NCBI RefSeq assembly: GCF_900167395.1
Contig: NZ_FUWK01000028.1
Span: 7,709 to 39,708 of the forward strand
DNA from: Nitrosomonas europaea
GTDB lineage: Bacteria > Pseudomonadota > Gammaproteobacteria > Burkholderiales > Nitrosomonadaceae
Reading direction: 5' to 3'
DNA: 32,000 nucleotides
Made by a program: the position numbers and the translations under genes. The notes beneath the pieces were generated by a model. That model was not told the DNA's origin, made no database searches, and worked only from the letters and a program-made list of their open reading frames with translations. Below are positions 6,793 to 32,000 of this stretch, piece after piece (the first letter of the stretch is position 1; the number at the start of each line of letters is the position of its first letter).

Positions 6793-7006
6793 CGTTCTAG
6801 TCCAGGTACATTATTAGAAACCATCATTGCCAAAAGCTACTGAGCGGCCCGGGGCAGTTCACACAGCCTGAATATAAGATTCGATTTCTATTCAAAGATC
6901 GAATTTACTTGGTTATTAATAGACCAGGCTTTATATCCAATTGAGGATATACAAATGACAAACTCTTAATTAAAGCTACCCTGTAGATGCACCTATAGAA
7001 AGTGCT

Positions 7007-7030
7007 AAAACAAAAAACCTGGAAACCGGT
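7007..7030 (-). terminator. Weak intrinsic-terminator-like element downstream of the aminotransferase gene
   Basis: On the minus strand, ACCGG-TTT-CC(A)GGT forms a 5-bp stem with one bulge, followed directly by TTTTTGTTTT. It lies 45 nt after the stop at 7075. The stem is short, so confidence is low. Confidence 0.35.
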
Positions 7031-7074
7031 GGATACAATTGCGACGAAGACTATGACTTTTTCTCTTTGAGAGA

Positions 7075-8220
7075 TCAGCTAACAGCTTTACACAAAACCT
7101 CAACGACCCGGTCTTGCTGCTCTACTGATAAACCAACCCAGAGGGGTAACCGAACCAATCTCTCAGATTGTTGAGTAGTAATTTTCAGGTTGCCATGTAT
7201 ACGTCCGTACCGTAAACCAGCCGGGGAGGAATGAAGGGGCACATAATGGAACACAGACCAAATATCGTTTCTCTTAAATTCGTCAAGTACTTCTTGCCTA
7301 TCAATTTTTGATGCCAATAATACATAATACATGTGGGCATTATGCTGACACTCTTCCGGAACGATTGGACGACGCAGAATCTCTTTAGCTTCAAGTGGCC
7401 CAAGCAACTCATGATATCGTTGCCAGCTTGCCAGCCGCTCGTTAGTTATACGGTCTGCTTCTTCAAGCTGCGCCCACAGGAAGGCAGCGATCAGCTCACC
7501 CGGTAAGAATGACGAGCCCACCTCCTGCCAGGTGTACTTGTCCACTTCGCCCCTGAAGAACTGACTGCGATCGGTCCCTTTTTCGCGGATGATCTCTGCA
7601 CGAAGGCTCAGATCAGGTGTATTAACGAGTAGCGCACCGCCTTCTCCCGAGATCACATTTTTTGTTTCGTGGAAACTGTAGGCTCCAAGATCACCAATGC
7701 TGCCGAGGGCCCGCCCTTTGTAGGTTGACATCACCCCCTGCGCTGCATCCTCAACGACCTTCAATTCATGCTTCTGGGCGATGGCCATAATCGTATCCAT
7801 CTCGCACGCCACTCCCGCGTAATGCACGGGAGCAATGGCACGGGTACGCGGCGTAATGGCGGACTCAATCAGCCGTTCGTCCAAATTCAGAGTGTCTTCT
7901 CTGATATCGACAAACACAGGAACCCCACCACGTAGCACAAAGGCATTGGCGGTAGATACAAAGGTGTACGACGGCATGATGACCTCGTCACCGGGCTGAA
8001 TATCCAGCAATAAAGCAGCCATCTCGAGTGCCGCCGTGCAAGAGTGAGTAAGCAGACCCTTATTACATCCAGTCCGCTCCTCCAGCCATGCATGACAGCG
8101 CTTGGTGAAAGGCCCATCGCCTGCCAAGCTACCATTGAAGTGCGCTTCAGCGATGTAGTACAACTCCTTGCCTGTCATGTGAGGCCAGTTGAACGGGATG
8201 CGGTGATTTGTATTTTTCAC
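7075..8220 (-). CDS. wecE: dTDP-4-amino-4,6-dideoxygalactose transaminase (WecE/RffA, DegT/DnrJ/EryC1 family)
   Basis: Long near-identical blocks to E. coli WecE as I recall it. Examples: SCTAALEMAALLLDIQPGDEVIMPSYTFVSTANAFVLRG, PVHYAGVACEMDTIMA, VEDAAQGVMSTYKGRALG, SFHETKN, EIIREKGTDRSQFFRGEVDKYTW. The start overlaps the upstream stop by 4 nt. Confidence 0.9.
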   Translation of the reverse strand: MKNTNHRIPFNWPHMTGKELYYIAEAHFNGSLAGDGPFTKRCHAWLEERTGCNKGLLTHSCTAALEMAALLLDIQPGDEVIMPSYTFVSTANAFVLRGGVPVFVDIREDTLNLDERLIESAITPRTRAIAPVHYAGVACEMDTIMAIAQKHELKVVEDAAQGVMSTYKGRALGSIGDLGAYSFHETKNVISGEGGALLVNTPDLSLRAEIIREKGTDRSQFFRGEVDKYTWQEVGSSFLPGELIAAFLWAQLEEADRITNERLASWQRYHELLGPLEAKEILRRPIVPEECQHNAHMYYVLLASKIDRQEVLDEFKRNDIWSVFHYVPLHSSPAGLRYGRIHGNLKITTQQSERLVRLPLWVGLSVEQQDRVVEVLCKAVS

Positions 8221-10466
8221 ACTCTCTCCAAAACCCTGCGTCGAAACGTTTGCGAAAACTTAAAAATAATCAGAACAAACAAGAAAATCCAGAAAACATG
8301 TGCAATCCAGGCGTAGCGGGCAAGAGGCTTGAATTCGAGACGTACTCGGCGAGTTTCTTGAGGCACTAACACGCCCTGAAACACTCCATTGACCTCCACA
8401 GTCTGCGCGGCCTGCCAACCCTGATTGGTTTCTGCAAGTGCCTCCCAGTCGCGATGAAACTTCTGACTCAATAAAAAAACAGATGGTGCGGAGGAATTTA
8501 CCTCAAACTCTAATACATCACCCTGATCCAAAATCTTGACGGGTGTGTTCGTAACCATACCTCGCGGGTCATCGAGCACAAGTTTTGTCGAGCTCATATC
8601 AAGCTGCGGGGGGGTTACTTGCATGCTGTCGCCCATCCGTGAAACCACCCGGTAAAGGTGGATACCCGATTCCTCACTCAAAAACTCCAAATTTTCATGC
8701 GCCAGCTTGCCCGACGAGAGGATCAGGCTGATATTGCTCATCCAAAACATTGTGCCGGCATAGTCTGGGTCGATGGCTCCATTCCAGCGACCATATGTCT
8801 GCACTTCCCCACCAAGCGCCTTGATCAAGGTGTGGTATCGGGTGGAAGAGAGGCTGTTATAGCTATGCACAGAAGACAGATCGAGTGTGGCGTTAAGGTT
8901 CGGCGGCAACACTGAAATCCCTGGGGCTGCAACAGCATAACGACTGCCAGCCGGCAGATTTTCCCTAACCTTCTCAACCAGAGGCGAGGTCATCGCTATC
9001 TGCGCCGGATCTTGCTTAAGCATCAGCGGATAAGAGGTCATACCCAGAACCAACACAAGAGCCATCATCAAAAATAACGGACGGTATCGATCGTATTGCG
9101 CGATTAGTAGCCCAGTCACCAGCAGCATTCCGATGACAATCTCCCAATGAATCGAAATATGCTGCGAAACACCGTATGCAACACCAATCGCAATCACTAC
9201 CAGCGCAACTGCCGCTCCAGCAAATACGGCGCTCGAAAATTGACGGTGATGCGTGCGCCTGGCAAGAGCATCAATACCGAACGCAGTGATAATGGTAAGA
9301 GGAAGTGTGATACTCCCCAGTGGCGTGCTTCGCGAAAGATTGAACCCAAAGTATTTAACACCCAACACATAGAGTGGATGTACGAAGGCAAGCAGGCAAA
9401 ATATAAGAATCGCCAGCCACCACCCCCAGGTTTCCTTGAATGAAGTGACTAACGCCACGACTCCAAAGAAAATAGCGATCAACGTTACGCTCAAACCGTC
9501 GTAAGAAAATGGGAAAGATGGCGCGATCGGATTGCCAAAAATTTCAGGGATTGTACTCAGTACAAAAAAGCGAACCAGCTCAGTAAAGCTGGCGAACTTT
9601 GGAAGCACCATCGTGAAAAACGAGGGATCGGGTGCAACTCGTGCAGACTCGGACGAGAGAATGAACAGATCTCGATAAACAGGAAAAGCGAGCGCGGCTC
9701 CAACAACCAGAGCAGATAAAGCAAGAGTAAGGAATTTGGCAAGTTCAAGTCGGCTGACGCGTGCCTGATGGTATGCCAACCAGAGACCATAGCCACCCAG
9801 CAGGTAGGCATGAAAGACAACCGGCTGCGGGTACGCAGTCATCAGTAGACTGTAACCGCTGAAAGCCAACACGCCCCAGCCCAAAATATCCGGGCGTTTC
9901 GCCAAACGAGTAACAGCCCACAATGCCCCCGCTGCCCAGCACCACACGGCCGGGAACATGGGAAAGGTCAGCCAGTACATGAACAACGGAGATGTCGCCA
10001 ATCCTAGTCCTGCAATCAAGCCAGCTATAGGACTTAAGCCAACTTCCCTGGTAAACAACAAGACAAATAAACCGGCAAGGAAACAGAAACCTAATGACAA
10101 CGTGGTGATGAAGCGCCAAGGGCCATCAACCAATCTGGTAATCACCCAAGACGGCAGATAGGCTGAACTAAAGCCTGAAATTTGATAGAGCGGCCGCCCA
10201 AGCTCTGTATTATTTGACCAGAGAGGTAACCAACCAGATCGGGCCATCGTTAGATGCTCTGTTATTTCTGGGATATACGCATTTGTGAAGTCACTAAACT
10301 TTCTGTTCTCAATGAGGGAGCTATCTAAGTTTACAAGCTCAACGTGACCAACCTCTATCTCCTGCCGGTGTGGTGCTACAACGTAAGAAAAAAAACCCGA
10401 AAACAGTACAGCAGCTACTGCAATGTAATAGATCAACACATGCTTGTAGGAGGAAAATGGAAGCAT
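8217..10466 (-). CDS. Large polytopic membrane protein with a roughly 270-aa C-terminal extracytoplasmic domain. By architecture it is a GT-C-type (YfhO/ArnT-like) glycosyltransferase candidate.
   Basis: A dozen or more hydrophobic helices span the first ~490 aa, followed by a soluble tail. It sits in an operon with GtrA-like and GtrB/ArnC-like genes. I chose the ATG at 10466 (MLPFSSYKH...) because the track start (10514) overlaps the upstream methyltransferase by 41 nt. No family-level motif could be verified by eye. Confidence 0.55.
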   Translation of the reverse strand: MLPFSSYKHVLIYYIAVAAVLFSGFFSYVVAPHRQEIEVGHVELVNLDSSLIENRKFSDFTNAYIPEITEHLTMARSGWLPLWSNNTELGRPLYQISGFSSAYLPSWVITRLVDGPWRFITTLSLGFCFLAGLFVLLFTREVGLSPIAGLIAGLGLATSPLFMYWLTFPMFPAVWCWAAGALWAVTRLAKRPDILGWGVLAFSGYSLLMTAYPQPVVFHAYLLGGYGLWLAYHQARVSRLELAKFLTLALSALVVGAALAFPVYRDLFILSSESARVAPDPSFFTMVLPKFASFTELVRFFVLSTIPEIFGNPIAPSFPFSYDGLSVTLIAIFFGVVALVTSFKETWGWWLAILIFCLLAFVHPLYVLGVKYFGFNLSRSTPLGSITLPLTIITAFGIDALARRTHHRQFSSAVFAGAAVALVVIAIGVAYGVSQHISIHWEIVIGMLLVTGLLIAQYDRYRPLFLMMALVLVLGMTSYPLMLKQDPAQIAMTSPLVEKVRENLPAGSRYAVAAPGISVLPPNLNATLDLSSVHSYNSLSSTRYHTLIKALGGEVQTYGRWNGAIDPDYAGTMFWMSNISLILSSGKLAHENLEFLSEESGIHLYRVVSRMGDSMQVTPPQLDMSSTKLVLDDPRGMVTNTPVKILDQGDVLEFEVNSSAPSVFLLSQKFHRDWEALAETNQGWQAAQTVEVNGVFQGVLVPQETRRVRLEFKPLARYAWIAHVFWIFLFVLIIFKFSQTFRRRVLERV

Positions 10467-10473
10467 GTGAATG

Positions 10474-11349
10474 CTAAGCCGATTGTTTTTTTGCCACAAC
10501 CAGCCTGGATCCACCGACGGGATAATTCATCCCAAGCCTAATCCCTGCAAGCTCTAACATCATTAAACCGTAAAAAACCTTATTCAAAGCTGCGTTGATT
10601 TTAAGTTCGCCGGCAGGATCGAAATCTTTTGTTTTTCGCTTCTGCAAGACTCGTGAAAGCATCATTACTGGCAAAAGGCTCGTTACAAAAGAACTGCTCC
10701 TTAAAAGCTCAAAACCGGCGGTCAAAACCTTCTGCTCGATCTCGACACGCGTGTATCGGCGCACATGGCAGGCATAGTCGTCAGAAGCGCTCCACAACCG
10801 GGGATGCTGAGGAACGGTTAGCAGCAAAACACCACTAGGCTTAATGGCGTTATGAAGTTGAGCCAGGACAGTTTCATCTTCTTCGATGTGTTCCAGCACA
10901 TCAAAGGCGCCAATGGCATCAAACTCTTCCACAAAAGGCACCCGACGAGCATCCATCTGCATGAAATGTGTGGAGGGAACGCGTTTAGCCGCATGAAATA
11001 AGCCAGCCAAAAAAATCTCACTGCCATTTAATGCTATTTCAGGGCAGGCACGAGCGATACCCGACAGAACAAAGCCAGTACCACAACCCACCTCCAAAAA
11101 TGCGCCAGCGTTTGGCTTGTAGGTGCGCAGCGCCCAGAGAATAAGCTCGTTACGCGCCCGAAACCAGAAATTACCCGCCTCTAATCTGGATAGCTCTGAG
11201 AAGTATTCAGGCTTAAAACCTCCGCCACCATGTGCAAACTCAGAGGCATGAGCCTCTATTCCGTTCAAGCGTTCTGGCTGATAACCGCATGAAGGACAGG
11301 CCCAATCGGCAGAAGAGAAGAAATTTTCGCACTGAAGACAAACTTTCAT
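10474..11349 (-). CDS. Class I SAM-dependent methyltransferase with N-terminal zinc ribbon
   Basis: CxxC...CPxC at the N-terminus (MKVCLQCENFFSSADWACPSCGY). SAM motif I (FLEVGCGTGFVL) and post-I/II motifs (FDAIGAFDVLEHI). Confidence 0.85.
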   Translation of the reverse strand: MKVCLQCENFFSSADWACPSCGYQPERLNGIEAHASEFAHGGGGFKPEYFSELSRLEAGNFWFRARNELILWALRTYKPNAGAFLEVGCGTGFVLSGIARACPEIALNGSEIFLAGLFHAAKRVPSTHFMQMDARRVPFVEEFDAIGAFDVLEHIEEDETVLAQLHNAIKPSGVLLLTVPQHPRLWSASDDYACHVRRYTRVEIEQKVLTAGFELLRSSSFVTSLLPVMMLSRVLQKRKTKDFDPAGELKINAALNKVFYGLMMLELAGIRLGMNYPVGGSRLVVAKKQSA

Positions 11350-11780
11350 GAGGGAACTCCTTCGGATTCTGCCGCACTCTGCGCAAATACAAAAAACCGC
11401 GACATAACAAACAGAAAGATGGCCACCACGATGATTGCTATCGCCTGTACGATTTGATGCGGAAAACCTAACCAGTCCACAAACAACAGCAGCAAAACTA
11501 AATTCAGCAGATAGCCTGCAACTTGCGCCAGCAGGTAACGGACACCGGTAACGCCAATATGTCCGTCATGTCGAAAAGTATAACGTCGATTGGCGAAAAA
11601 CCCAATTGATGCCCCTACGAAGTACAGAGCCGTCATCGTTATCTTGGGAGCGTCCCATAAATAGGTCAGGAGGAGGTAAAAGGCATAACCTAAAACATTT
11701 GTCAGAATGCCAATCAATGCATAGCTAAACAATTGCCGAAATGTTTTTCGAATGGACAAGATTCCAGAATCAGCATTCAT
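11346..11780 (-). CDS. GtrA-family small membrane protein (putative polyprenyl-phosphate-sugar translocase)
   Basis: 144 aa with four hydrophobic helices. The N-terminal FRQLFSYALIGILTNVLGYAFYLLL pattern and a central NRRYTF loop are typical of GtrA-like proteins. ATGA-type 4-nt overlaps on both sides. Confidence 0.8.
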   Translation of the reverse strand: MNADSGILSIRKTFRQLFSYALIGILTNVLGYAFYLLLTYLWDAPKITMTALYFVGASIGFFANRRYTFRHDGHIGVTGVRYLLAQVAGYLLNLVLLLLFVDWLGFPHQIVQAIAIIVVAIFLFVMSRFFVFAQSAAESEGVPS

Positions 11781-12562
11781 TTTTCTTCTCTAAGATTTAA
11801 GCTGATATATATTTTTTGTCCTGATTCGTCATCTATAACGTATGCATTTTTTGAGTCTTCAAAAAATGCCAGTCCGCGAAGAAGATTAAAAAATTCTACC
11901 CCCTGATAACTCTTGTTAAGATCTATCAGGCAGGTTTTTTCAAACTTTTCCCTGGAATAATAGTCGCCCCTTGCCCCCTTCTTTTTTTGCGTATCCCTAA
12001 GACGGCTACCCAAGTCATAGGTCAGAAGTCGCTCTATTAATTCGTCAAAATGATGGCAAACTATATCATCGAGCCTTGACTGCAATGTTCTAGCCGTGTC
12101 GCTTAGATGTACAGGAACTTCAACTTGCATGAAAATTTCACCATCATCAATTTCTTCGTTGACGAAGTGGTAGGTGAACCCTGTTCTACGCTCTCCATTG
12201 ATGATGGCCCAGTTCACGGGATAAACACCACGATATGACGGGAGTAGGCTGTAATGGAGATTTAACACGCCCTGCTTTGGAAGGCTAATTAAATCAATGG
12301 GAATGATATGCTTCCAGCTCAAAAGCAAAAACCAATCAGCCTGCCGAATCAAACGATCAACCGAGAAAGGCGCCTCATACACAAGCAGAGGGATATTTGC
12401 CTTCATACATATCTCGCGTACACCAGGCCACCATGCTTTTCCATTTTCGCGAGTCGTGACAACAACTGGAATTTCAAAGCGACTGGCATCAGAGTGCGTA
12501 ACAAGCTTTTGAAGAAGCCTATAGCCTATCTCATGATCGACGAAAGGGACTATGCGTTGCAT
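11777..12562 (-). CDS. Sugar N-formyltransferase (Fmt/ArnA-N-terminal-domain family)
   Basis: Formyltransferase core LNLHYSLLPSYRGVYPVNWAIINGERRTGFTYHFVNEEIDDGEI matches the H-x-SLLP-x-x-RG motif and the catalytic Asp region. Size and context match nucleotide-amino-sugar formyltransferases (WbtJ/WbkC/VioF/ArnA-N type). Confidence 0.8.
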   Translation of the reverse strand: MQRIVPFVDHEIGYRLLQKLVTHSDASRFEIPVVVTTRENGKAWWPGVREICMKANIPLLVYEAPFSVDRLIRQADWFLLLSWKHIIPIDLISLPKQGVLNLHYSLLPSYRGVYPVNWAIINGERRTGFTYHFVNEEIDDGEIFMQVEVPVHLSDTARTLQSRLDDIVCHHFDELIERLLTYDLGSRLRDTQKKKGARGDYYSREKFEKTCLIDLNKSYQGVEFFNLLRGLAFFEDSKNAYVIDDESGQKIYISLNLREEK

Positions 12563-12565
12563 CGT

Positions 12566-13204
12566 TCACGCCTTCCTTATCAGAATTGTGAACTCATAAA
12601 GCCCATAGTCATGAAGTAACGCGACTTGGCGGGAATAGCGGCGCTTGCATAAATCAAACAATCGACACGGGTCAGCATAATAGAGATAGTCGCGCTTTTT
12701 GTCCTCGTCGGAGTAAGAAGTCAGGCAGTTGAAAGCGAATCCAAGACTGCTGGTTCGGTTCAGTACGTCCAATGTACCCAGCAGATAGTCAAACCACTCA
12801 GCATCCGTTCGCTCCAGACGCACATTGAAAATGCCGCTGGCGACACCATAGTCCGCCACTTGGTCTGGTTCAGTTGAGGTGATAAAGCGAGCTTGATTGG
12901 CGGCAGTGTGTCGCTGCCTGGCAGCTTTGATCATTTCGTGGGAAACATCCACCCCGAGGTATATACAGGCTGCATACTTGTCTCGCAGATAGTCCAGCAA
13001 TGCGCCATAGCCACAACCCAGGTCGTTCAAGGAAAAACCAGGCATCTTCTTCGGGTCAATCACTTTACAGAGCTGCTCAAATCGAATCGTTTGGCTTTCT
13101 TCACCATTCCAGTCGACCCCGCGAGGCGTATCACCATGTTCCGCAAGTTTTTCAGCGTAATACGTTGCAACTTCGTCGAGCAGCTTAGTCTTGTTGTTTT
13201 GCAT
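12566..13204 (-). CDS. Class I SAM-dependent methyltransferase
   Basis: Motif I LNDLGCGYGALLDYL, followed by LGVDVSHEMIKAA. 212 aa. Overlaps the upstream GT2 gene by 20 nt. Confidence 0.8.
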   Translation of the reverse strand: MQNNKTKLLDEVATYYAEKLAEHGDTPRGVDWNGEESQTIRFEQLCKVIDPKKMPGFSLNDLGCGYGALLDYLRDKYAACIYLGVDVSHEMIKAARQRHTAANQARFITSTEPDQVADYGVASGIFNVRLERTDAEWFDYLLGTLDVLNRTSSLGFAFNCLTSYSDEDKKRDYLYYADPCRLFDLCKRRYSRQVALLHDYGLYEFTILIRKA

Positions 13205-14114
13205 AAATCTGCCTCACGATGGTATAGGGGCGCTGCTTGGTTTCCGAGAATATCTTGGATAAGTAGATGCCCACCACACCAATGAAAGAGATAATCATCC
13301 CACCAAGAAGCCAAATAGAAGCCATTACGGATGTCCATCCGGCTAAAGGTTTTGCCAAGAAAAGCCAGTGAGTAACCAGATAAGCGATATAAGCCAAAGC
13401 AAACAACGAGATCGATATACCGATATAAAAAATGCTGACCAGTGGGGTGTTACTGAATGATGTCACCGAGTTGACCAGCAAGGACATTTTTCTGCGGAAG
13501 GTGTATGTGGTCTCGCTAGTATTGTGCTTTTTGATGACATAAGGGCGCTGGTCAAACCCGGTGATGTACCACAAGCCCGCCATAAAAACTTCCCGCTCTT
13601 CATGGCGCAGCAAAGCATTAACGTACCGACGAGTCATCAGGCGCGCGGTGACAACATTTTCCGGCAATGCAAGACCCGTCAGTGCTTTGAAAAAGCGATA
13701 GAACCACTGTCCACTCCAGCGCTCAAACCAGCTCCCTTTTCTGCGTTCCTGAATTCCGTACACCACATCACAACTCTCCTGCTCCATCTGCTGCACGAAT
13801 GTCTCTAGCCATTCAGGCTCCTCCTCCAGGTCGCTATCAATCAAAAAAACTCGCTCCCCCTTTGCGTGCGCCAAGCCAGTCATCATCGCCTTGTGGTGTC
13901 CAAAATTACGCGACAAATCAACAACAACAACGTGCGAATCCTGCTCCGTGAGTTTGACGGCCAGATCCAAGCTGTTGTCTGGTGATCCGTCGTTTACAAG
14001 AACTATTTCGTAATCGTCCCCAACCAGCCGCCTTGCCGTGGCACTCGCACGCTCGTGAAATTCATTGATGTAGGGCGCAGACTGATAAAGAGTTGCGACG
14101 ATCGAGAGCTTCAT
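13185..14114 (-). CDS. Family 2 glycosyltransferase with two C-terminal TM helices (ArnC/GtrB/CsbB-like polyprenyl-phosphate glycosyltransferase)
   Basis: GT-A signature MKLSIVATLYQSAPYI...EIVLVNDGSPDNS...LSRNFGHHKAMMTGLAHAKGERVFLIDSDLEE (DxD-type). Two C-terminal membrane helices (LVSIFYIGISISLFALAYIAYLV; VMASIWLLGGMIISFIGVVGIYL). This is the architecture of Und-P sugar synthases. Confidence 0.85.
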   Translation of the reverse strand: MKLSIVATLYQSAPYINEFHERASATARRLVGDDYEIVLVNDGSPDNSLDLAVKLTEQDSHVVVVDLSRNFGHHKAMMTGLAHAKGERVFLIDSDLEEEPEWLETFVQQMEQESCDVVYGIQERRKGSWFERWSGQWFYRFFKALTGLALPENVVTARLMTRRYVNALLRHEEREVFMAGLWYITGFDQRPYVIKKHNTSETTYTFRRKMSLLVNSVTSFSNTPLVSIFYIGISISLFALAYIAYLVTHWLFLAKPLAGWTSVMASIWLLGGMIISFIGVVGIYLSKIFSETKQRPYTIVRQIYAKQQD

Positions 14115-14236
14115 TTGAACAGTTGATCAAGGTTGAATGGGATATGTACTGCCAACAACCACCAAAAGGTGTGCTCAATCAACACAATCCCTTACGATTG
14201 GTTAGTTCGCCAGTAACCAGGCTGTGCAAGATCTTG

Positions 14237-14569
14237 TCATGGGTCAGTTTGCGCGTTGCAAGTGAGCGCACTTGCAGCAATGATGGCATCTGGCAGCTTT
14301 ACGCGGTGGCTACGACGCAAACCAATAACCATATCTTCAATCTCTTTGGTCAGGGGCAGATACTGGAGGCAGGCCAGTTTTCCACTAATCAGAATTTCTT
14401 CTTCCGCAGTCAATCCCGGAAAGCCCAGTAACTCCATACGAGTGATTGCGCTATAGCCGCAACGCCGGGTATCAATCTGCTGATTACTGATCATGGACAA
14501 TGTTTCAGGATTGGATTTCAATAGCCCAAGAATAAAGTTGGTATCAAGCAGCCAGTCAATCCCATTCAC
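14237..14569 (-). CDS. vapC: PIN-domain toxin (VapC family), possibly C-terminally truncated
   Basis: WLLDTNFILGLL (first acidic PIN residue), TRMELLGF and LPDAIIAASAL motifs. GTG start at 14569 with AGGAGG 9 nt upstream; it overlaps the antitoxin stop by 14 nt. Only 110 aa, see findings. Confidence 0.75.
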   Translation of the reverse strand: MNGIDWLLDTNFILGLLKSNPETLSMISNQQIDTRRCGYSAITRMELLGFPGLTAEEEILISGKLACLQYLPLTKEIEDMVIGLRRSHRVKLPDAIIAASALTCNAQTDP

Positions 14570-14777
14570 GGCGCAGTGCCTCCTGTACTGCCAACGGTTC
14601 CCCGGCAAAGCAGGCTGAATGTTCCAGCCCACCGGCCATATCAATCAGCCGGAAAGGCTCATCTGGTTGCGGAAGCATGTTCTTCTGGTGTAGAAATTCG
14701 GCAAAATCCAGCAACTCTGCCAGAGCAGCAGGTGGTAGCGTACTACTGAGTTTGTAAAGCCGTTCGATTGTTGACAT
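14556..14777 (-). CDS. Type II antitoxin (DUF2281/VapB-like)
   Basis: MSTIERLYKLSSTLPPAALAELLDFAEFLHQK is the DUF2281-type N-terminus. The C-terminal ...FAGEPLAVQEALRREWD is typical of partners of PIN toxins. I prefer the ATG at 14777 because AGAGGA lies 6 nt upstream; the track start at 14795 is TTG. Confidence 0.7.
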   Translation of the reverse strand: MSTIERLYKLSSTLPPAALAELLDFAEFLHQKNMLPQPDEPFRLIDMAGGLEHSACFAGEPLAVQEALRREWD

Positions 14778-14854
14778 TGTCATTCCTCTTTCCAACGTAT
14801 CGTATCGATTATCCGATCAAATTTCCTGCTCGTCATATCGAAATGATCGTGAGA

Positions 14855-15547
14855 TTATTCCACATACTTCATATAACGCTTCGCGTTCTTCCCGCAATTG
14901 AGCAACAAATCAAGAATGGTAACGCCATGTGTGAATTCCCCCCAGAGTTGCTGATATTCCGGATACCCGATGTAATCAAACCAGGTGAGTTTGATGCCAT
15001 TCTCTTTAAAAACCTGCTCATCCACGTAATCTTTTGCCGCCGGGCCTGAGATGTACTCAGTGCCACCAGCCTGCACACAAAGGTCAGCAAGGCGTTCGGT
15101 CTTGCCATCGAGCAGGGTGTAATCCCATGAATTTTTAATTACCGTCTTGATCCCCAGGTAGTTACAGATAGCTTCAATAAATCTCCTGTTCAATTGTGAA
15201 ATATGGGTGAAGGTCTCTGCGAGATAGAGTGGCTCCAGCCATGCAGCAATCTCAGTAAAATGCGGTGAACGACGATAGTTCTGCACCAAGGCTTTCCAAT
15301 GCGCAGCTGCCCAATCAGTACCGTCGATTTCGGTCTCGCGAATCTTTTGATGGTATTTACCCTTCACCAGAACCGGAACCGTGAGCCACTGAACACCTTG
15401 AGGTGTTTTGATCTGATTACGATTTCGCCAATCGCGGCGCGTATATTGCATATCATCGTAGAGGATGAACTCATCTACGGCAGCAATCATATCGAAGTAA
15501 CCCTTCCACGGTATGTAGTTGGATTGCACGATGGCGACTTTTTTCAT
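14855..15547 (-). CDS. WbqC-family protein (polysaccharide-cluster protein of unknown biochemical role)
   Basis: N-terminus [47 protein letters not shown] matches the WbqC-like family pattern (Q-x-x-YLPW-x-GYFD...). The start overlaps the upstream stop (ATGA). Confidence 0.7.
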
Positions 15548-17127
15548 TGTCCTGCGTTTCTCGTTTTATAGATTTGATACGCTGGATTATGTGAATTTGG
15601 CACCAATTCAAAATTGTTCAGGATAAATTGGTAAATTAACGGATGTGTATTTTTAAAACGCAGCTCGTCACGACCATCAAGAGGCAGATCAAAAATAAAC
15701 GCAAAACCAGGGTCAGATGCCTTGATGCGTTCGATCTCTTTTTTCTCGAATGCTCCTGTGCGGGGAAATAATGCATAAATCTCCCACATGGGCGACCTTC
15801 GCTCCAGCAAAGCATAAGCACCAGGCCAAAAGGGTGTGGCAATAAAAGACCGTCCATCTGGAGCGAACTGATCAGTCAATTGATGGAGCAATGCAATGTC
15901 ACTCGCCGTATTTGGATCGACCTGGAGATACTTGCCAGATATATCCACATTGACGCACTGTTTGCTTGCCAGGCATTGCCACCCAGGGTGAAACACATGC
16001 ATCACCCAGAAGCTTGTCATAAATAGACCAGCAGCAAGAACCCACTTTGTTTTGCTGGACGCACTTGACGCTATGGCCAGAATCCCGATCAAAAGTGGGA
16101 ATATACCTTGAGCAAGGTGCCCAACGTCAGCGCGAGAAAACGCGTAATGCGCATAAGGAAGCGCGAGAAATGCTGATGCGACCAACACTGGCGGTAAGGG
16201 CTTTTCCTTCAATCCTCGATAAACGACCCATATAACTGAAAGCCCCCCAAAGATTAGGGTTCCAATAAAGAAAATACCGATCAATACACCCCGCGCAGCA
16301 TCACCGATAGAAGAGGCAGCAAAGTTGATTGTCCACGGCCAGGGCACGGGTAGTGGCAAATTAGTGGCTTTTTGTTCAAACAAAAATCGCACACTTTCCC
16401 AGAATGCAACTGCAAAACCTGGAATCAGGAGCGCCATGAAAATAATAGGGAGAAAGCCGATCGTAACCCCTACACTCCAAAGTACAAACCCTTTCAAAAA
16501 TCCGGTATCAGAACGGTTCCTGATATTGAGCCAAGCGATAACACCAAGGCTACCTACAGCACCGTAAACGCCATGATTACGACCAAAAACAGCAATCAAT
16601 CCGACACAGATGCCAGCAATAAGATAGCGTTTGGGAATGGGGTTTGAAACAAGATAAGTCAGAATTCCGATCAGAAATATAGAGATGGAAATATCGAAAA
16701 GCTTGTGGCGTGGAAACATCCATAACACCAGTATCGCTGCAGAGATTATCCAGAAGAGAATATCAGCTTTATCTCTGCTCTTTGTCGACTGCGCAATCAA
16801 CAACAAACCAACGAATAAGCCGAGGCACTGGAAAACAGCCACTGCTATACGGACACTCATAATACCGTTGTCACCAGCAACACTCAGTAGTGCTGCAACC
16901 CAGTAATAACGACCGGGATCATAGGACATAAAATCACGAATCGGGATTTCACCCAGCAAAACTCGCTGGACGCCGTACCACAGATAGCCTTCATCCCACA
17001 AGTTAAAGCCCTTGTTACCCTGCCAAATAAACAGTAAAAAGATGACAAGGCATGAAATCGTCAGAATCTGGATTAGTCTATATTTATTGTTTTGTATTTC
17101 TGGCTCATCCATATACGCATCCGGCAC
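15544..17127 (-). CDS. Polytopic membrane protein, GT-C-type (ArnT/PMT-like) glycosyltransferase candidate
   Basis: 527 aa with about 12 hydrophobic helices. An acidic DE motif sits in the first predicted external loop ([35 protein letters not shown]), resembling the loop-1 DE/DxD of GT-C enzymes. The C-terminal ~140 aa are soluble. Assignment is by architecture and context only. Confidence 0.5.
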
Positions 17128-17256
17128 TAAAATGCCATTGTAATCTACAGCAAAGAGAGCGTCACCTTCTCACGGATTGTTGCGAATGGCATCAGCACGT
17201 TGCACTGGCCATCCACCAGGGTCCATAGACAAGAACAAGTAATAGCACTGCAAATA

Positions 17257-19986
17257 TCAACAATCATCCACAGCTTCCAGCGATTCACCGATTCTGCACA
17301 GAGGTTTGAGCTCGCAGTAAGTGCAGGTTTGCGGGTATTGTTTAGGGCTCACTCTGGCTTCTCCGGCCATAAAATCCTGCACCAGTTGCTCGATCGTCTG
17401 GCGCCAGCCGGCCAATACTTCATCCCAGCTTGCTGCTTCCCGGGTATGTCTCAGGTTTTCGAAAGATTTTATTCCCAGGATCGATACTTCTTCGCTTGCT
17501 ACACCCTCAAACGCAATATCACCTGCTCTGATGCGGGCAAATGCAATCCCGGCCAGCCCGTCATCAGTAAATGCCAGACTGTATAGCGGCAATTGCGGTT
17601 CATCGGGGCGATCGCCAAACCACGCACTTGCTTTGACTTCACCGGTTTTGTAGTCGATGAGCAGTTCACCCCCTTCTTCCAGCGTATCGATGCGGTCTAT
17701 CCTCAAATTGATGCGCAGGCCGTTCAGTTCAAGCTCCGTTTCCATTTCCCGGCCTGAAACACGGAAAGGGGGGCGCTGCTTTTCCATTTCCAGCCACGCC
17801 AGCACGAGAGCATGCAATCGTTTGCTTTCAAGTGCTTGCAGACGCTCACCAAAAGTGTGCGGATAGCGCGGAGCGATTTCGTATATCGCTTCATTCACCT
17901 TGCCGGCGACCAGTGCATTCAGCTCACCAGGGGACAAATTTGCCAGTGCTGCTAACGAATCCAGTTCAGCCCAGACCATTTCCATGACCCGGTGCAGCAA
18001 AGTGCCGCGTACCAGCGCATTCAGACCGATCTGTATGCGGCCCAGTGGACGGGCGACCAGCCGCAGTTCGGCAAATGCCCGGAACGGGCAGGCTGCCTGT
18101 AACTTGAACAGCTTGCTGCCGCCCGGAATACCCGTTCCGACAAATGTCGGGGCAACATCCTCGGACAGCACCTCCTGTTGTCGACTGTGATACACGCTGT
18201 CTCGCCAGGCGGATTGCGTACCCATGGCGAGCATTTCTTCACTCAACGCCGGGAAAGCATCGATCAGTGGACTGGAATCGAGGATTTCATCGCCCTTACG
18301 CTGCGGATAGCTGATGACAACCTCAGTAGCATTCGTGGTAATTCGCTGCAACAGCGCTGCTGCCACACGTAATTCACGCCTGGCGCTGGAATGCGGCGCA
18401 TCAACCTCACGCTGCAAGGTCAGAGGAAGAAACGGATTGGGCCGGGATGATGCGGGAAATACGCCGTCATGCAATCCCATGATCCAGAGATAGTCGAACT
18501 GCAGCCCGCTGGTTTCAAACAACCCCAATACCTGCACAGGCGCCTCCGCTGATTCCGGCTGAAAAATCGTACCGGCAACCATGTGCCTGAGTTGCTGCAG
18601 CGCTTCAGTCAAACTGACCGACCGAATTACCCAGTCCAGCGTGGAAAATTCTCTCAGTACCCCCTGCCATGCCTGGATAACCTGATATTCCTCGCTGGAC
18701 AATCCTCGCTCACCTGGCCAGCCGATTGCTTTCAGCCACTGTCCGAATCGCTGCGCCCACTCTCCCGGGCTCGTTGGCGCAAGTGATACTTTCACCTGCT
18801 TCATCAAATTACTCAGACATTCGGCCAGCAGTGGACACGAATAGGGCTGGCCACTGCGAGCCGCATTCGTCAGCAGCTTTTGCAGGGTCAGATTCCATTC
18901 ACCCGATTCGCGCAGACGAGCATCCAGCAAGGCGCGCGCATTCATTTCCCGATCCCCGCCCGCAATGAAAGAAGAACGCAGCACACGACTGACATGCGGC
19001 AACTCGATGACAGTTTCTGATAAACCGAGAACATCCAGCGCCAGACTGACGGGTGGATAGCGGTCGAGCGGCTTGCCAAGCGACAAATTGTAAGAACGCA
19101 CCCGATCATGATGCTCCGGCTGCAATGCTTGTGGAATCAGCACTTCATCCAGTGTCTGGCAGATCATTTCCCGCTGTGCGGCCAGTTCCGGCACGACCAG
19201 CGCAATCCTCGCCGCCGGATTTTCCTCCAAACGTTGCCGTATCCAGCGCGCCGCCTGCCGGATCTCGTCACGACCGTCTGCGCACGCCAGCTTGCCGATA
19301 CGATCCGGCTGACCGGATAACTGTAACCACTGCAATGAGCATCCCGTCTGTTCGAATGCACGCAGAAACGATGATTGCTGCGGTGTCCACTCATCGAAAC
19401 CGGTCAACACAAGCTCGTTCGGCACTGACAGGCTGTCGATCTGCACGTATTTCTGCAATATTCCGGGCAGAACGGCGACTGAAAGCCAGCTATTTTTCCG
19501 GCATTTCGCTTCGAACATCGAGGCCAGTTGCCAGAACAACCGGGTATCGGCGTTATGACCGAAATCCGCTTCCCGGCAGGGAATACACCATGCATGCAGT
19601 GTCTGCCATGCTTCCATGATACGAGCGACAGTCTCGTTGGTGGCCTGTAACGGAACATCGCCGGACTGTTCTGCCAGAATTTCCTGCCAGACGAAATACT
19701 CCTGATGGGAAGTCAGTAACACCCCCGGGGCCGATTCAATCCGGCTGGAAATGACCACCTCCTGCCACAGCTGCTGCAACCATGCATCCCAGGGCAGAAT
19801 ATCCGGTGCGGGCCATGCCCCGTGTCCTTCCGCAGACCTGGCCTGATTGAATGCCTGATGAAGGGCACGCGCCAGCCGCCGGTTTCCGGTCACAATCGTT
19901 GCACAGCCATCCAGTCTTTGGATAAGATCGGTGATGTTAGTCTGTCGGGCGTCGAACGGGCGGGTCGTCATGGCCGGATTTTCCAT
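17257..19986 (-). CDS. AddB-like PD-(D/E)XK nuclease with C-terminal Fe-S cysteine cluster (partner of the AddA-like helicase)
   Basis: Nuclease motif LLIDYKTGE...PQLPLYSL. One upstream Cys (AACPFRAFAE) plus C-terminal CTYCELKPLC matches the AddB-type 4-Cys staple arrangement. No Walker A. The start is uncertain: TTG 19995, ATG 19986 or ATG 19971. Confidence 0.8.
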   Translation of the reverse strand: MENPAMTTRPFDARQTNITDLIQRLDGCATIVTGNRRLARALHQAFNQARSAEGHGAWPAPDILPWDAWLQQLWQEVVISSRIESAPGVLLTSHQEYFVWQEILAEQSGDVPLQATNETVARIMEAWQTLHAWCIPCREADFGHNADTRLFWQLASMFEAKCRKNSWLSVAVLPGILQKYVQIDSLSVPNELVLTGFDEWTPQQSSFLRAFEQTGCSLQWLQLSGQPDRIGKLACADGRDEIRQAARWIRQRLEENPAARIALVVPELAAQREMICQTLDEVLIPQALQPEHHDRVRSYNLSLGKPLDRYPPVSLALDVLGLSETVIELPHVSRVLRSSFIAGGDREMNARALLDARLRESGEWNLTLQKLLTNAARSGQPYSCPLLAECLSNLMKQVKVSLAPTSPGEWAQRFGQWLKAIGWPGERGLSSEEYQVIQAWQGVLREFSTLDWVIRSVSLTEALQQLRHMVAGTIFQPESAEAPVQVLGLFETSGLQFDYLWIMGLHDGVFPASSRPNPFLPLTLQREVDAPHSSARRELRVAAALLQRITTNATEVVISYPQRKGDEILDSSPLIDAFPALSEEMLAMGTQSAWRDSVYHSRQQEVLSEDVAPTFVGTGIPGGSKLFKLQAACPFRAFAELRLVARPLGRIQIGLNALVRGTLLHRVMEMVWAELDSLAALANLSPGELNALVAGKVNEAIYEIAPRYPHTFGERLQALESKRLHALVLAWLEMEKQRPPFRVSGREMETELELNGLRINLRIDRIDTLEEGGELLIDYKTGEVKASAWFGDRPDEPQLPLYSLAFTDDGLAGIAFARIRAGDIAFEGVASEEVSILGIKSFENLRHTREAASWDEVLAGWRQTIEQLVQDFMAGEARVSPKQYPQTCTYCELKPLCRIGESLEAVDDC

Positions 19987-20072
19987 GTTTCGCAAACAGT
20001 CTGATAATCAATGCTGTACGCAGGCAGAGTAATACAATTCAATTTTTGAAACAGTTTTTATCAGGAGAACCA

Positions 20073-31404: not shown

Positions 31405-32000
31405 GCCGACCGCCGCCGTGCCTGGCCCATGCGGGCTTCATCGGTTTGGTCGAGTTCGGTCACGTCTGCTCCTTAGTATCTCGTTGTTCAGCCCTTCGGC
31501 AGCCCGACACCTGGCTGCCTACTATGGCTTCTGCTGACTTCTGCACCGTCACGCCCACCGTTGCCAGTGGACGCGCTGCCCGTCTGATCGTGCGTCGCTG
31601 CCGGTTTCTTCGCTCGTGGCGGGCAGCTCGCCACGGCTCCTGGTCCTTGGTTGCCCGGTGGGACCGGCCGGGTCATCGTCACGATCAGGCTGGCCGCCGT
31701 CAGCACAGACCTCCCCAGGTAAGAACGCGAACTGTCGGTGCACAAGCGCCGCATTTACCGTGGCCGGCGTACCGTTGGGCTTCGCTGTCATGTGCCAGCT
31801 CGCCTCGCCTGCCTCGGCCTTCTATGCGGTTTCTGTCCGTCGCCTCGCACCTCTTGCACTCCGGCTTCCTCCAGACAATCCCTCACGGGCTTGCCCTTGC
31901 CTTCGGCTCGTGGTTATACTCGGTTCACAATGAATCCAAGTCGGTACTCCCACAGGGGACTTGCACCCCATAAGTTCGCGCCCATGCTGGGCGCACACAA

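Follow-up and report, generated by a model that had tools for sequence, protein, structure and literature searches.

A block of ten genes in the 32,000-nucleotide stretch of Nitrosomonas europaea DNA analysed here (the window) represents one copy of a cassette that is self-contained and was acquired horizontally. Its products most likely make an N-formylated amino-deoxy sugar, load it onto a lipid, flip it and attach it outside the cytoplasm by means of two GT-C-type glycosyltransferases. We consider it probable that the cassette encodes a multi-component transmembrane glycosylation pathway in which the N-acyl group is retained and the two GT-Cs act in parallel. What the analysis demonstrates is the identity of the genes, the modelled folds, the conservation of the cassette and its insertion. 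Its substrates, carrier lipid, reaction topology and acceptor are proposed from homology and gene context, from which it appears to be a variant of known multi-component periplasmic glycosylation systems.

Lipid-carrier systems of this kind govern O-antigen serotype, polymyxin resistance, and teichoic acid and protein glycosylation. If our reading is correct, the cassette would add a new sugar class and a dTDP donor type to them, and would suggest roles for two large unannotated membrane protein families and for WbqC, which is frequent in O-antigen clusters. It would also represent a compact, portable surface trait with cross-phylum transfer and swappable acylation and flippase modules, which may change the charge or antigenicity of the surface of environmental bacteria, the model ammonia oxidiser N. 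europaea among them. A literature search returned no paper on the genes or the system, in keeping with the initial annotation, which had called the pathway uncharacterised. Of the checks proposed there, all those carried out favoured its interpretation.

The gene block, its insertion and its relatives

The genes listed in the initial annotation were all found, on the minus strand, at the coordinates collected in Table 1. Of the four 4-nt ATGA overlaps described there, those at 11346-11349, 11777-11780 and 15544-15547 are present, but the one at 8217-8220 reads GTGA because the start codon of the WecE gene is GTG. The open frame of the 749-aa membrane protein extends to position 10514; since its homologues have 747-755 aa, Met17, the start that had been assumed, is the likely one. 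For the 527-aa membrane protein, the database annotation gives 522 aa, starting at the ATG of residue 6.

Table 1. Coordinates of the cassette genes and of the insertions, in window positions.
Feature	Position	Strand	Remarks
WecE gene	7075-8220	-	dTDP-4-amino-4,6-dideoxygalactose transaminase
749-aa polytopic membrane protein	8217-10466	-	predicted GT-C fold; proposed periplasmic transferase 2
291-aa class I SAM methyltransferase	10474-11349	-	Methyltransf_23/11/25 matches
GtrA-family small membrane protein	11346-11780	-	PF04138; proposed flippase
Sugar-type N-formyltransferase	11777-12562	-	PF00551 + PF18216; variable N-acylation slot
212-aa class I SAM methyltransferase	12566-13204	-	Methyltransf_25/12/11 matches
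GtrB/ArnC-type GT2, C-terminal TM hairpin	13185-14114	-	PF00535
Inserted toxin-antitoxin pair	14237-14795	-	antitoxin 14556-14795; PIN/VapC ~14237-14569
WbqC-family protein	14855-15547	-	PF08889
527-aa polytopic membrane protein	15544-17127	-	predicted GT-C fold; proposed periplasmic transferase 1
Inserted island	6793-17256	.	between addA-like (3325-6792) and addB-like (17257-19995)

The gap between the two halves of the block (14115-14854) contains an antitoxin and a PIN/VapC toxin (PF01850, 4.3e-8), which the initial annotation had not listed. A PIN scan and the gene tables revealed no such pair in the sister cassettes, where the WbqC and GT2 genes overlap directly. The two-halves layout is the result of a toxin-antitoxin insertion, and the pair is not part of the pathway.

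The block as a whole is also an insertion. In relatives, addB and addA adjoin, with a gap of 39 nt in one (L042, AddB identity 83%) and an overlap in N. communis (L043). The GC content inside the block is 0.45-0.51, compared to 0.52-0.57 in the flanking genes. In agreement with what had been claimed before, a scan of the ten ORFs of the cluster and of ten large ones flanking it gave no RmlA, RmlB or ArnD-type (polysaccharide deacetylase) domain.

The same gene set, with its order mostly kept, was seen again in some 20 independent loci retrieved from several phyla, which answers the question of co-occurrence raised by the initial annotation. The hosts are Beta-, Gamma-, Alpha- and Deltaproteobacteria, Phycisphaerae, a cyanobacterium and a Parachlamydiaceae MAG. 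WecE and WbqC are 88% and 86% identical to deltaproteobacterial copies, a Peteryoungia plasmid carries a cassette remnant flanked by IS, and the cassette is found, transferred in one piece, in unrelated surroundings. Wzm/Wzt genes adjoin two of the sister cassettes.

Proposed sugar synthesis, acylation and further modification

The identity of WecE is supported by two models whose cut-offs it passes, NF008687 at equivalog level (631 bits, 630.9 before rounding; cut-off 375) and TIGR02379 (701 bits, 700.7 before rounding; cut-off 434.85). E. coli WecE (4PIW) is the closest characterised enzyme with 513 bits, other sugar aminotransferases reaching at most 168 bits. The protein would convert dTDP-4-keto-6-deoxyglucose, drawn from the host rhamnose pathway, to dTDP-4-amino-4,6-dideoxygalactose.

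The formyltransferase combines PF00551 (5e-27) with PF18216 (8e-13), the small C-terminal dimerisation domain of the sugar type. Its PDB matches are ArnA-N (1.8e-19), which is the closest, 6NBP, WbkC, VioF and Rv3404c, and its NLH...D aligns to N102/H104/D140 of ArnA, so that the Asn/His/Asp triad is kept. Against NF005755, the equivalog for dTDP-4-amino-4,6-dideoxyglucose formyltransferases, it scores 84 bits (cut-off 238), a miss that fits a substrate that is different (galacto) or modified in some other way. The enzyme would N-formylate the WecE product, with N10-formyl-THF as the assumed donor.

Across the loci compared, the acyl slot is occupied by a hexapeptide (NeuD/PglB/VioB-type) acetyltransferase in 13 cases, by a formyltransferase in four and by an ATP-grasp protein in one (L009). 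Besides the N. europaea copy, L004, L028 and L033 have a formyltransferase in this slot, and no acyltransferase was detected in the cassettes of L013 and L026. Formyl is a minority alternative to the hexapeptide acetyltransferase, which would perform the equivalent N-acylation in most sister cassettes. The earlier view of an Fmt/ArnA-N-type formyltransferase in place of WecD is therefore right about the sugar-type enzyme but not about its counterpart, which is a hexapeptide acetyltransferase and not the GNAT WecD. We think that the product keeps its N-acyl group, as the ATP-grasp variant suggests.

WbqC (PF08889, 6.7e-85) has no PDB relative detectable by sequence or profile search. Its gene is present in all 20 complete cassettes, and its constant companion, in distant plasmid clusters too, is WecE or some other aminotransferase of the DegT family. 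Of the 16 cassette homologues aligned, 15 show 63-86% identity across phyla and the remaining one (L031) 45%; 56 columns of this alignment are invariant. The 212-aa methyltransferase is near-core, with copies in 16 cassette loci, and matches only generic methyltransferases in the PDB. The 291-aa enzyme has an N-terminal Cys4 motif and the rRNA methyltransferase RlmA as its closest PDB match (1P91, 2e-7), followed by generic methyltransferases; it occurs in all ten GtrA loci and inside the cassette in none of the 11 ArnF-type loci. Tailoring by both methyltransferases and WbqC, as first proposed, needs to be divided accordingly: WbqC is core rather than optional, and the 291-aa enzyme is an accessory that goes with GtrA. 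Some further modification would be made by the 212-aa methyltransferase and WbqC.

Proposed lipid loading, flipping and transfer

The GT2 (PF00535, 2e-29) had been described as ArnC/GtrB-like with C-terminal TM helices, and its residues 2-304 indeed give full-length matches, TM hairpin included, to GtrB (5EKP, 5e-47) and ArnC (9HWJ, 6e-39). It stays below equivalog level in both its best NCBIfam match, PgfS (188 bits, cut-off 500), and the ArnC model (136 bits, 135.6 before rounding; cut-off 529). The enzyme would move the sugar onto undecaprenyl phosphate. To our knowledge, the donor of every characterised GtrB/ArnC-type synthase is a UDP- or GDP-sugar. A dTDP-sugar would have no precedent, and the cassette GT2, if it uses one, would be the first such synthase we know of; this counts against our reading, as does the absence of RmlA and RmlB from the window.

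A PF04138 match (1e-18) backs the membership of the small membrane protein in the GtrA family, as originally assigned. GtrA is found in 10 sister loci and an ArnF-like EamA protein in 11, the two never occurring together. GtrA would flip the lipid-linked sugar, and the ArnF-like protein may take that place in the sister cassettes. GtrA, the GtrB-type GT2 and a GT-C are encoded together in overlapping or abutting genes, as in three-component Gtr systems.

The 749-aa and 527-aa proteins have no sequence match in Pfam, NCBIfam or the PDB. Their AlphaFold (AF2) models are confident (pLDDT 89.9 and pTM 0.90; pLDDT 82.7 and pTM 0.85, respectively). In Foldseek searches, the model of the 749-aa protein matched AftD (2.7e-8), STT3, ArnT (5ezm, 1.3e-5), PglB, EmbB and AglB, and that of the 527-aa protein STT3 (4.7e-5), AftA (3e-4), PglB, ArnT (5f15) and Emb, the matches of the 527-aa protein all having probability 1.0. 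The top 20 and top 15 PDB matches, respectively, were GT-C enzymes only (probability 0.97-1.0), with modest TM-scores of 0.3-0.5 for both proteins; no WaaL, Wzy, RodA or Wzx structure was among the 50 hits listed. The models thus favour the GT-C-like nature that had been claimed for both.

The two proteins belong to different, unrelated GT-C families. In the 749-aa protein, D59 is invariant and E67 nearly so; both lie in the first loop, between helices 7-26 and 116-142. In the 527-aa protein, D45-E46, D65 and D70 are invariant and lie between TM1 (helix 10-36) and TM2 (helix 89-112). The model of the 749-aa protein has helices to residue 481, a mixed, then β-rich domain (485-712) and a final helix (715-748), a predicted architecture resembling YfhO, with an N-terminal TM bundle, an extracytoplasmic β-sandwich and a C-terminal TM helix. 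As to the 527-aa protein, a search of clusters at 50% identity gave 817 representatives of its family at E<1e-30. That the two proteins use a polyprenyl-phosphate sugar donor outside the cytoplasm is proposed solely on account of their neighbours, the GtrB/ArnC-type synthase and GtrA; in the periplasm, both would transfer the sugar.

Known GT-C families were not recovered at the level of profiles. The YfhO model (PF09586) does not match the 749-aa protein of the window, and of the 65 members of its family a single one gives a hit (E=0.42); the ArnT/PMT_2 models (PF02366, PF13231) match neither protein nor any family member, and an hhalign comparison to a PMT_2 protein from L033 gave a probability of 0.1%. 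Some copies of the 749-aa protein carry a YfhO label in NCBI and UniProt, and UniProt labels the 527-aa protein 'RgtA/B/C/D-like domain'.

Acceptor, alternative readings and known systems

Each GT-C occurs without the other: Nitrosomonas sp. GH22 has the 527-aa protein without an intact 749-aa one, whereas L013 and L026 have the 749-aa protein without the 527-aa one. This suggests that they act in parallel, on two sites or acceptors, and not in an obligatory sequence. Even in hosts that are far apart, both GT-Cs remain 50-94% identical, and the cassette brings no acceptor gene along, which points to a conserved envelope component as the probable acceptor; our guess is a conserved glycan, be it the lipid A-core region or a different one, or alternatively a conserved protein region. 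Tentatively, and with well under even confidence in all its parts together, we picture an undescribed envelope modification in which a 4-amino-4,6-dideoxyhexose, N-acylated (formyl, acetyl or aminoacyl) and possibly methylated, is carried on undecaprenyl phosphate and transferred by the GT-Cs to a lipid A-core-like acceptor, WbqC providing an essential new step in donor synthesis.

It is unlikely, in our view, that the GT-Cs instead O-glycosylate periplasmic or outer-membrane proteins, like PgfS with PgfM1 and PgfM2 in Streptococcus mutans or GtrB with the YfhO-type PgtC2 in S. pyogenes. The invariant Asp-Glu pair in loop 1 of the 527-aa protein, which is also present in protein O-mannosyltransferases, would fit such a role, as would the high rank of oligosaccharyltransferases in both fold searches, the YfhO label of the 749-aa protein in some sources and PgfS as the best NCBIfam match of the GT2. 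That match is, however, far under its cut-off, the YfhO profile is not matched, the STT3/PglB motif WWDxG is absent on reading of the sequences, and the cassette brings along no protein that could be a candidate acceptor. A further point of likeness is that streptococcal Pgf (PgfS, PgfE, PgfM1, PgfM2) has one synthase and two GT-Cs, the synthase being GtrB-like and both GT-Cs of the YfhO type (PMC12041528). Both Pgf and the CsbB/GtcA/YfhO system of lipoteichoic acid share a GtrB-like synthase, a GtrA-type flippase and a GT-C of YfhO architecture with the cassette (PMC5836110, PMC7389260, PMC12041528). They differ in being Gram-positive systems that use UDP-GlcNAc, UDP-GalNAc or UDP-Glc, and in that the 527-aa protein belongs to another GT-C family and the 749-aa protein does not match the YfhO Pfam model.

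The Arn system, which makes the L-Ara4N modification of lipid A, shares an aminotransferase, an N-formyltransferase, GT2 loading of undecaprenyl phosphate, a small flippase and GT-C transfer with the cassette; the nearest PDB structures include ArnA-N and ArnC, and an ArnF-like protein occurs in sister cassettes. It differs in that its sugar is a UDP-pentose, in contrast to the proposed dTDP-6-deoxyhexose of the cassette (WecE), which lacks the decarboxylase domain and the ArnD deformylase. The N. europaea copy has GtrA instead of ArnE/F, with no EamA protein in the cluster, and the cassette adds WbqC and methyltransferases and has two GT-Cs that show no sequence relationship to ArnT. Scores against the Arn equivalogs all fall short, including ArnB (198.7 bits, cut-off 631) and ArnA (97.6 bits, cut-off 777). 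The idea that the pathway copies Arn logic thus holds for formylation, GT2, flippase and GT-C, but not for deformylation, as no deformylase is present and the ATP-grasp variant suggests that the N-acyl group is kept.

Followed strictly, Arn logic would make the acyl group transient, to be removed after transfer to undecaprenyl phosphate by an unrecognised deacylase, for which WbqC is a candidate, and would deliver a cationic 4-amino sugar to lipid A; the free amino sugar, possibly N-methylated, would be placed on the lipid A phosphates by both GT-Cs and lower the binding of cationic peptides. We hold this reading to be distinctly unlikely, even though the closeness of the formyltransferase to ArnA-N, the homology of the GT2 to ArnC, the ArnF-like proteins and the presence of ArnT among the Foldseek matches all speak for it. 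An acyl group that is interchangeable while the rest is conserved, and that has no detectable transferase in L013 and L026, could be transient, and WbqC is the only core soluble protein without an assigned role. Yet the cassette was found to contain no deacylase of the ArnD/CE4, YdjC or PIG-L type, WbqC resembles no hydrolase or solved structure at the sequence level, an ATP-grasp ligase fits a retained acyl decoration better, and all Arn equivalog cut-offs are missed. LgmA/B/C of Bordetella and FlmF2/FlmK/NaxD of Francisella likewise bring together an ArnC-like synthase and an ArnT-like GT-C whose substrate is an N-acylated amino sugar, as is proposed for the cassette; these lipid A hexosamine systems, unlike the cassette, have a dedicated deacetylase, a single GT-C and UDP-HexNAc.

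In another alternative, WbqC could act before the acyltransferase, placing an aminoacyl (glycyl-type) group on the 4-amino group that is then capped by formyl or acetyl. The resulting 4-(N-formylglycyl)amino sugar would be an analogue of N-acetylglycyl-Qui4N, which occurs in the O antigen of E. coli O121, the O antigen after whose gene cluster WbqC is named; we regard this order of steps and this product as quite improbable. WbqC is core and always accompanies WecE or another DegT-family aminotransferase, and the minimal cassettes L013 and L026 keep it without an acyltransferase, but no ATP-grasp, GNAT or Fem-type similarity was detected in it, and the C-terminal domain of the formyltransferase is typical of direct sugar-amine formylation. 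WbqC of Shewanella oneidensis is annotated as 'putative glycine transferase' (PMC7253198), although as a bare annotation, and N-acetylglycine is present in E. coli O121 (PMC7685785).

It is highly improbable that the block is a fragment of an ordinary O-antigen or exopolysaccharide cluster in which the two membrane proteins serve as polymerase (Wzy-type) and ligase (WaaL-type) or as transporters. O-antigen clusters do typically contain WbqC and WecE, and Wzm/Wzt genes stand beside two sister cassettes, but the leading Foldseek matches (probability ≥0.9) are all GT-C enzymes, with WaaL, Wzy, RodA and Wzx absent among the 50 listed, no initiating phosphoglycosyltransferase, Wzx or Wzz was found in the cassette, the GT2 is of the membrane-anchored GtrB/ArnC type, and the whole cassette is transferred together to surroundings of different kinds.

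The Fuc4NAc branch of enterobacterial common antigen (ECA) synthesis (RmlA/RmlB/WecE/WecD) shares a WecE orthologue with the proposed pathway and the same dTDP-Fuc4N intermediate, which is then N-acylated. There, WecF adds the sugar in the cytoplasm to an Und-PP-linked trisaccharide, whereas the cassette lacks WecD, WecF, WzxE and WzyE and would use an Und-P monosaccharide route instead. O-antigen glucosylation by Gtr systems has in common with the cassette a GtrA protein, a GtrB-type synthase (5EKP), an adjacent GT-C and mobility. It differs in using UDP-glucose rather than the N-acyl-4-amino-4,6-dideoxyhexose proposed to come from the cassette's own enzymes, and in that the cassette has two GT-Cs and its N. 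europaea copy is not phage-borne. The conservation of the GT-Cs across phyla argues against a serotype-specific O-antigen acceptor, and since WecE and an N-acyltransferase are encoded here, the sugar is probably not the glucose of Gtr systems.

Gene content of the block

The initial annotation had placed a cluster for the lipid-carrier-dependent transfer of a formylated amino-deoxy sugar at 7075-17127, and ten minus-strand ORFs are indeed found there. The gene junctions it listed are all as described except for one, the overlap at 8217-8220, which reads GTGA and not ATGA. Its gene list lacked a toxin-antitoxin pair inserted between WbqC and the family 2 glycosyltransferase (GT2). The division of the block into two halves is the product of this pair; in sister cassettes, the copies of the same gene set in other genomes, WbqC and GT2 overlap directly. 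In the window, the antitoxin has about 74-79 residues and the start of the PIN/VapC toxin is likely a GTG at 14569. The PIN match covers the profile only up to position 104 of 120, and the frame that follows resembles a displaced C-terminus, so the toxin may be frameshifted. RmlA, RmlB and ArnD-type enzymes, reported as missing from the block, were also missing from the window ORFs that we scanned. Scans for promoters and terminators were uninformative, with fewer sites than in shuffled sequences, and the window holds no tRNA genes.

Features of the block in transcription order, followed by examples of the GH130-like gene in acetyl-type cassettes of other genomes (coordinates of the respective locus). 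Protein accessions, from exact look-ups in Nitrosomonas europaea ATCC 19718, run from CAD86078 to CAD86088 across the block.
Feature	Position	Strand	Remarks
527-aa membrane protein	17127-15544	minus	first in transcription order; CAD86088
WbqC	15547-14855	minus	PF08889 at 6.7e-85
Antitoxin and PIN pair	14795-14237	minus	PF01850 at 4.3e-8
GT2	14114-13185	minus	full-length GtrB/ArnC match
212-aa methyltransferase	13204-12566	minus	generic class I
Formyltransferase	12562-11777	minus	PF00551 and PF18216
GtrA	11780-11346	minus	PF04138 at 1e-18
291-aa methyltransferase	11349-10474	minus	generic class I; N-terminal Cys4 motif
749-aa membrane protein	10466-8217	minus	CAD86079, locus NE2168
WecE	8220-7075	minus	last in transcription order; CAD86078
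GH130-like gene, L002	7656-8576		
GH130-like gene, L001	8649-9566		
GH130-like gene, L038	4827-5753		

Among the soluble enzymes, WecE reaches 631 bits with the equivalog model of dTDP-4-amino-4,6-dideoxygalactose transaminases, above the cut-off of 375, and matches the structure of E. coli WecE with 513 bits, compared to at most 168 bits for perosamine synthase, ArnB or QdtB. The second domain of the formyltransferase, PF18216, is the small domain found at the C-terminus of sugar N-formyltransferases, and the best relatives of known structure are the formyltransferase domain of ArnA (1.8e-19), 6NBP, WbkC, VioF and Rv3404c. The catalytic Asn-x-His and Asp residues are kept in the alignment to ArnA, and with 84 bits the protein stays below the cut-off (238 bits) of the equivalog model for the dTDP-Qui4N enzyme. 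Residues 2-304 of GT2, including its two C-terminal transmembrane (TM) helices, align to GtrB of Synechocystis (5EKP, 5e-47) and, over the same span, to ArnC (9HWJ, 6e-39), which marks GT2 as a predicted polyprenyl-phosphate glycosyltransferase of this type. For both methyltransferases, PDB searches returned generic class I matches and no informative relative, so we assign no substrate to them.

The two membrane proteins

Neither the 749-aa nor the 527-aa protein has a match in Pfam, NCBIfam or the sequences of the PDB. Extending the Pfam search to every aligned member of the respective families (65 and 58) also gave nothing, apart from YfhO matching once with E=0.42. With hhalign, the two families match each other with a probability of 0.4%, and a PMT_2-domain protein with 0.1%. 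At the sequence level, the two proteins are neither paralogues of each other nor detectable relatives of ArnT/PMT.

Structure models were built with AlphaFold2 on the family alignments; the topology was also taken from these models, as hydropathy segmentation was too noisy. The model of the 749-aa protein reached a pLDDT of 89.9 and a pTM of 0.90, that of the 527-aa protein 82.7 and 0.85. In Foldseek searches of both models against the PDB, all matches with a probability of at least 0.9 were GT-C glycosyltransferases, and unrelated transporters appeared only with probabilities below 0.25. The 749-aa protein matched AftD (2.7e-8), STT3 of yeast and human OST, ArnT (1.3e-5), PglB, EmbB, AglB and Pmt4, and the 527-aa protein STT3 (4.7e-5), AftA, PglB, EmbA-C, ArnT, AftB and ALG9. 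The TM-scores lie at a modest 0.3-0.5, a range to be expected of distant members whose periplasmic domains differ. Models and matches thus point to the GT-C fold, on which the pathway proposed in the initial annotation depended. A Wzy/WaaL-type identity of the membrane proteins was rejected on the same set of high-probability matches, and also because the cassette encodes no initiating phosphoglycosyltransferase, Wzx or Wzz, has a GT2 of the GtrB/ArnC type and moves as one unit between unrelated contexts.

GT-C enzymes place their catalytic carboxylates in a long loop after TM1. In this loop, D59 is invariant and E67 nearly invariant in the 749-aa family, and D45-E46, D65 and D70 are invariant in the 527-aa family; by their position in the models, and by position only, these residues would be equivalent to the catalytic carboxylates. 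The 749-aa model further has a β-rich periplasmic domain and a last TM helix, which is the architecture of YfhO, and some databases label the protein as such.

The plus strand shows a strong AT skew over both membrane-protein genes (0.34 at 9001-10000, 0.29 at 16001-17000), probably because of T-rich codons for hydrophobic residues on the coding strand.

Distribution, modularity and insertion of the cassette

A scan with one genome per species yielded 34 loci, to which we added loci fetched by exact protein look-up, and all were scored with the full set of cassette proteins. The gene set recurs in other genomes, where the initial annotation had proposed to look for it: WbqC, GT2, the 749-aa protein and WecE occur together in about 20 loci. 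From first to last, the cassette usually encodes the 527-aa protein, WbqC, GT2, the 212-aa methyltransferase, the acyl module, the flippase module, the 749-aa protein and WecE. Hosts include Beta-, Gamma-, Alpha- and Deltaproteobacteria, as well as MAGs of Phycisphaerae, Pseudanabaenaceae and Parachlamydiaceae, although some of the assignments of short-contig MAGs may be binning errors. Homologues of the 749-aa protein (53-94% identity) come from metagenomes and from genomes across many classes. The family of the 527-aa protein is the larger of the two: it has 1899 word-index matches, and 817 representatives of 50%-identity clusters match at E<1e-30.

The slot for N-acylation is modular. In 13 loci it holds a hexapeptide acetyltransferase of the NeuD/PglB/VioB family (TIGR03570, 177 bits), followed in 13 of 13 cases by a protein of about 305 residues with weak similarity to GH130 (β-1,2-mannobiose phosphorylase). 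This GH130-like gene is absent from all four cassettes with a formyltransferase, namely the one in the window, L004 (49% identity) and two Duganella loci (∼32%). In locus L001 the gene caller cut the GH130-like gene to 143 aa. In Neisseriaceae bacterium TC5R-5 (L009, 5411-8685) the acyl module is replaced by a methyltransferase, an NAD-dependent epimerase/dehydratase, an ATP-grasp ligase and a metallophosphoesterase, and nothing was detectable in the acyl slot of two further loci, L013 and L026.

GtrA occupies the flippase slot in 10 loci. In 11 others the slot holds an EamA protein of 124 residues whose closest similarity is to ArnF (4e-14, below cut-off), and no locus has both. This mutual exclusion supports the flippase role which the initial annotation had proposed for GtrA and which the two proteins would share. 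All 10 loci with GtrA also carry the 291-aa methyltransferase, whereas none of the 11 ArnF-type loci has it inside the cassette; the enzyme thus tracks GtrA as an accessory of this module and not as a core tailoring enzyme, which suggests a functional link between the two.

Each of the two GT-C proteins is able to occur without the other. Nitrosomonas sp. GH22 (L038) has kept the 527-aa protein within an otherwise intact acetyl/ArnF-type cassette, and the usual slot of the 749-aa protein, between the ArnF-like gene and WecE, contains three short ORFs without Pfam matches (231, 180 and 94 aa; 6117-7737), which we read, from their position, as a fragmented 749-aa gene. Locus L013 has the 749-aa protein and no 527-aa protein; immediately upstream of its 749-aa gene lies the gene of another polytopic protein, in which TM1 is followed by an Asn-Asp-Asp motif. 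A second membrane protein is absent from L026. As the GT-C proteins occur singly, we read their action as parallel and not as obligatorily sequential.

The block (6793-17256) is set exactly between the genes of an AddB-like nuclease (17257-19995) and an AddA-like helicase-nuclease (3325-6792). These genes abut or overlap in N. communis (L043, 8001-14167) and in a close relative that shares 83% AddB identity and the neighbouring holB gene (L042, 8001-14261), so the 10.5-kb block is an insertion. Its GC content is 0.45-0.51, compared to 0.52-0.57 in the flanking genes, and no direct or inverted repeats of at least 9 nt flank it. The acetyl/ArnF-type cassette of Nitrosomonas sp. GH22 is found at another locus, and a search with WbqC led to an IS-flanked cassette remnant on a Peteryoungia plasmid; a tblastn search of 72,556 plasmids with the 749-aa protein gave no match. 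Deltaproteobacterial copies of WecE and WbqC share 86-88% identity with those of the block.

Elsewhere in the window, a tyrosine recombinase/integrase gene (28501-29472) is followed by a group II intron (30091-31892). The ORF of its reverse transcriptase-maturase lies at 30091-31404, and domains D1-D4 match Rfam at 31491-31575 and 31724-31892. The GC content rises to 0.62-0.65 in this part of the window.

Proposed pathway and possible role of WbqC

The best-supported reading of the cassette is a generalised form of the one originally proposed: a portable, multi-component transmembrane glycosylation system, for which all substrates are predicted. dTDP-Fuc4N would be N-formylated, or N-acetylated in most cassettes, and further modified by WbqC and the 212-aa methyltransferase. 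GT2 would load the sugar onto undecaprenyl phosphate, GtrA would flip the lipid-linked product, and the two GT-C enzymes would transfer the sugar.

No acceptor gene accompanies the cassette, and between distant hosts its GT-C proteins retain 50-94% identity. This makes a conserved structure of the envelope the probable acceptor, for which we tentatively suggest the lipid A-core region or a different conserved glycan. The main alternative is O-glycosylation of proteins, which has precedents in the Pgf system (PgfS with two YfhO-type enzymes, PgfM1 and PgfM2) and in GtrB with PgtC2 (PMC12041528). As to the acyl group, we think that it is retained in the product, because the cassette encodes no member of a deacylase family and because an ATP-grasp ligase can take the acyl slot. 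Transient protection by the acyl group, as in the Arn pathway, is possible, and WbqC would then be the sole candidate deacylase.

As a transmembrane glycosylation system, the cassette would operate in the same way as the Arn, Gtr, CsbB/GtcA/YfhO and Pgf systems (PMC8035078, PMC5836110, PMC7389260, PMC11127046). It fits the generic three-component definition but falls outside the Arn pathway, as it misses the equivalog cut-offs and has no ArnD, and its membrane proteins fall outside the YfhO and ArnT/PMT_2 sequence families. New are the two GT-C families that no Pfam or NCBIfam model covers, the core role for WbqC, the modular and mobile organisation of the cassette, and the predicted sugar class, with the dTDP donor it would imply for a GtrB/ArnC-type synthase. 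To our knowledge, all characterised synthases of this type use UDP- or GDP-sugars. Literature searches for the locus tags NE2167-NE2177, the gene combination and the sugar found no description of the genes or of such a system.

WbqC is the best-conserved unknown of the cassette, with 63-86% identity in 15 of 16 aligned cassette homologues and 56 invariant columns. Searches of the PDB with the single sequence and with a 17-sequence profile gave no relative of known structure. More distant relatives (36-47%) on plasmids of Rhizobium (L044), Solidesulfovibrio (L045) and Bacillus thuringiensis (L041) all have a DegT/WecE aminotransferase as neighbour; those of Rhizobium and Solidesulfovibrio, but not that of B. 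thuringiensis, also lie next to class I methyltransferases. The Peteryoungia remnant (L040) combines a WbqC relative with a class I methyltransferase, without the aminotransferase. This recurring neighbourhood of aminotransferases and methyltransferases may be the best lead to the chemistry of WbqC. The B. thuringiensis plasmid cluster also encodes a PIG-L deacetylase and a GNAT enzyme.
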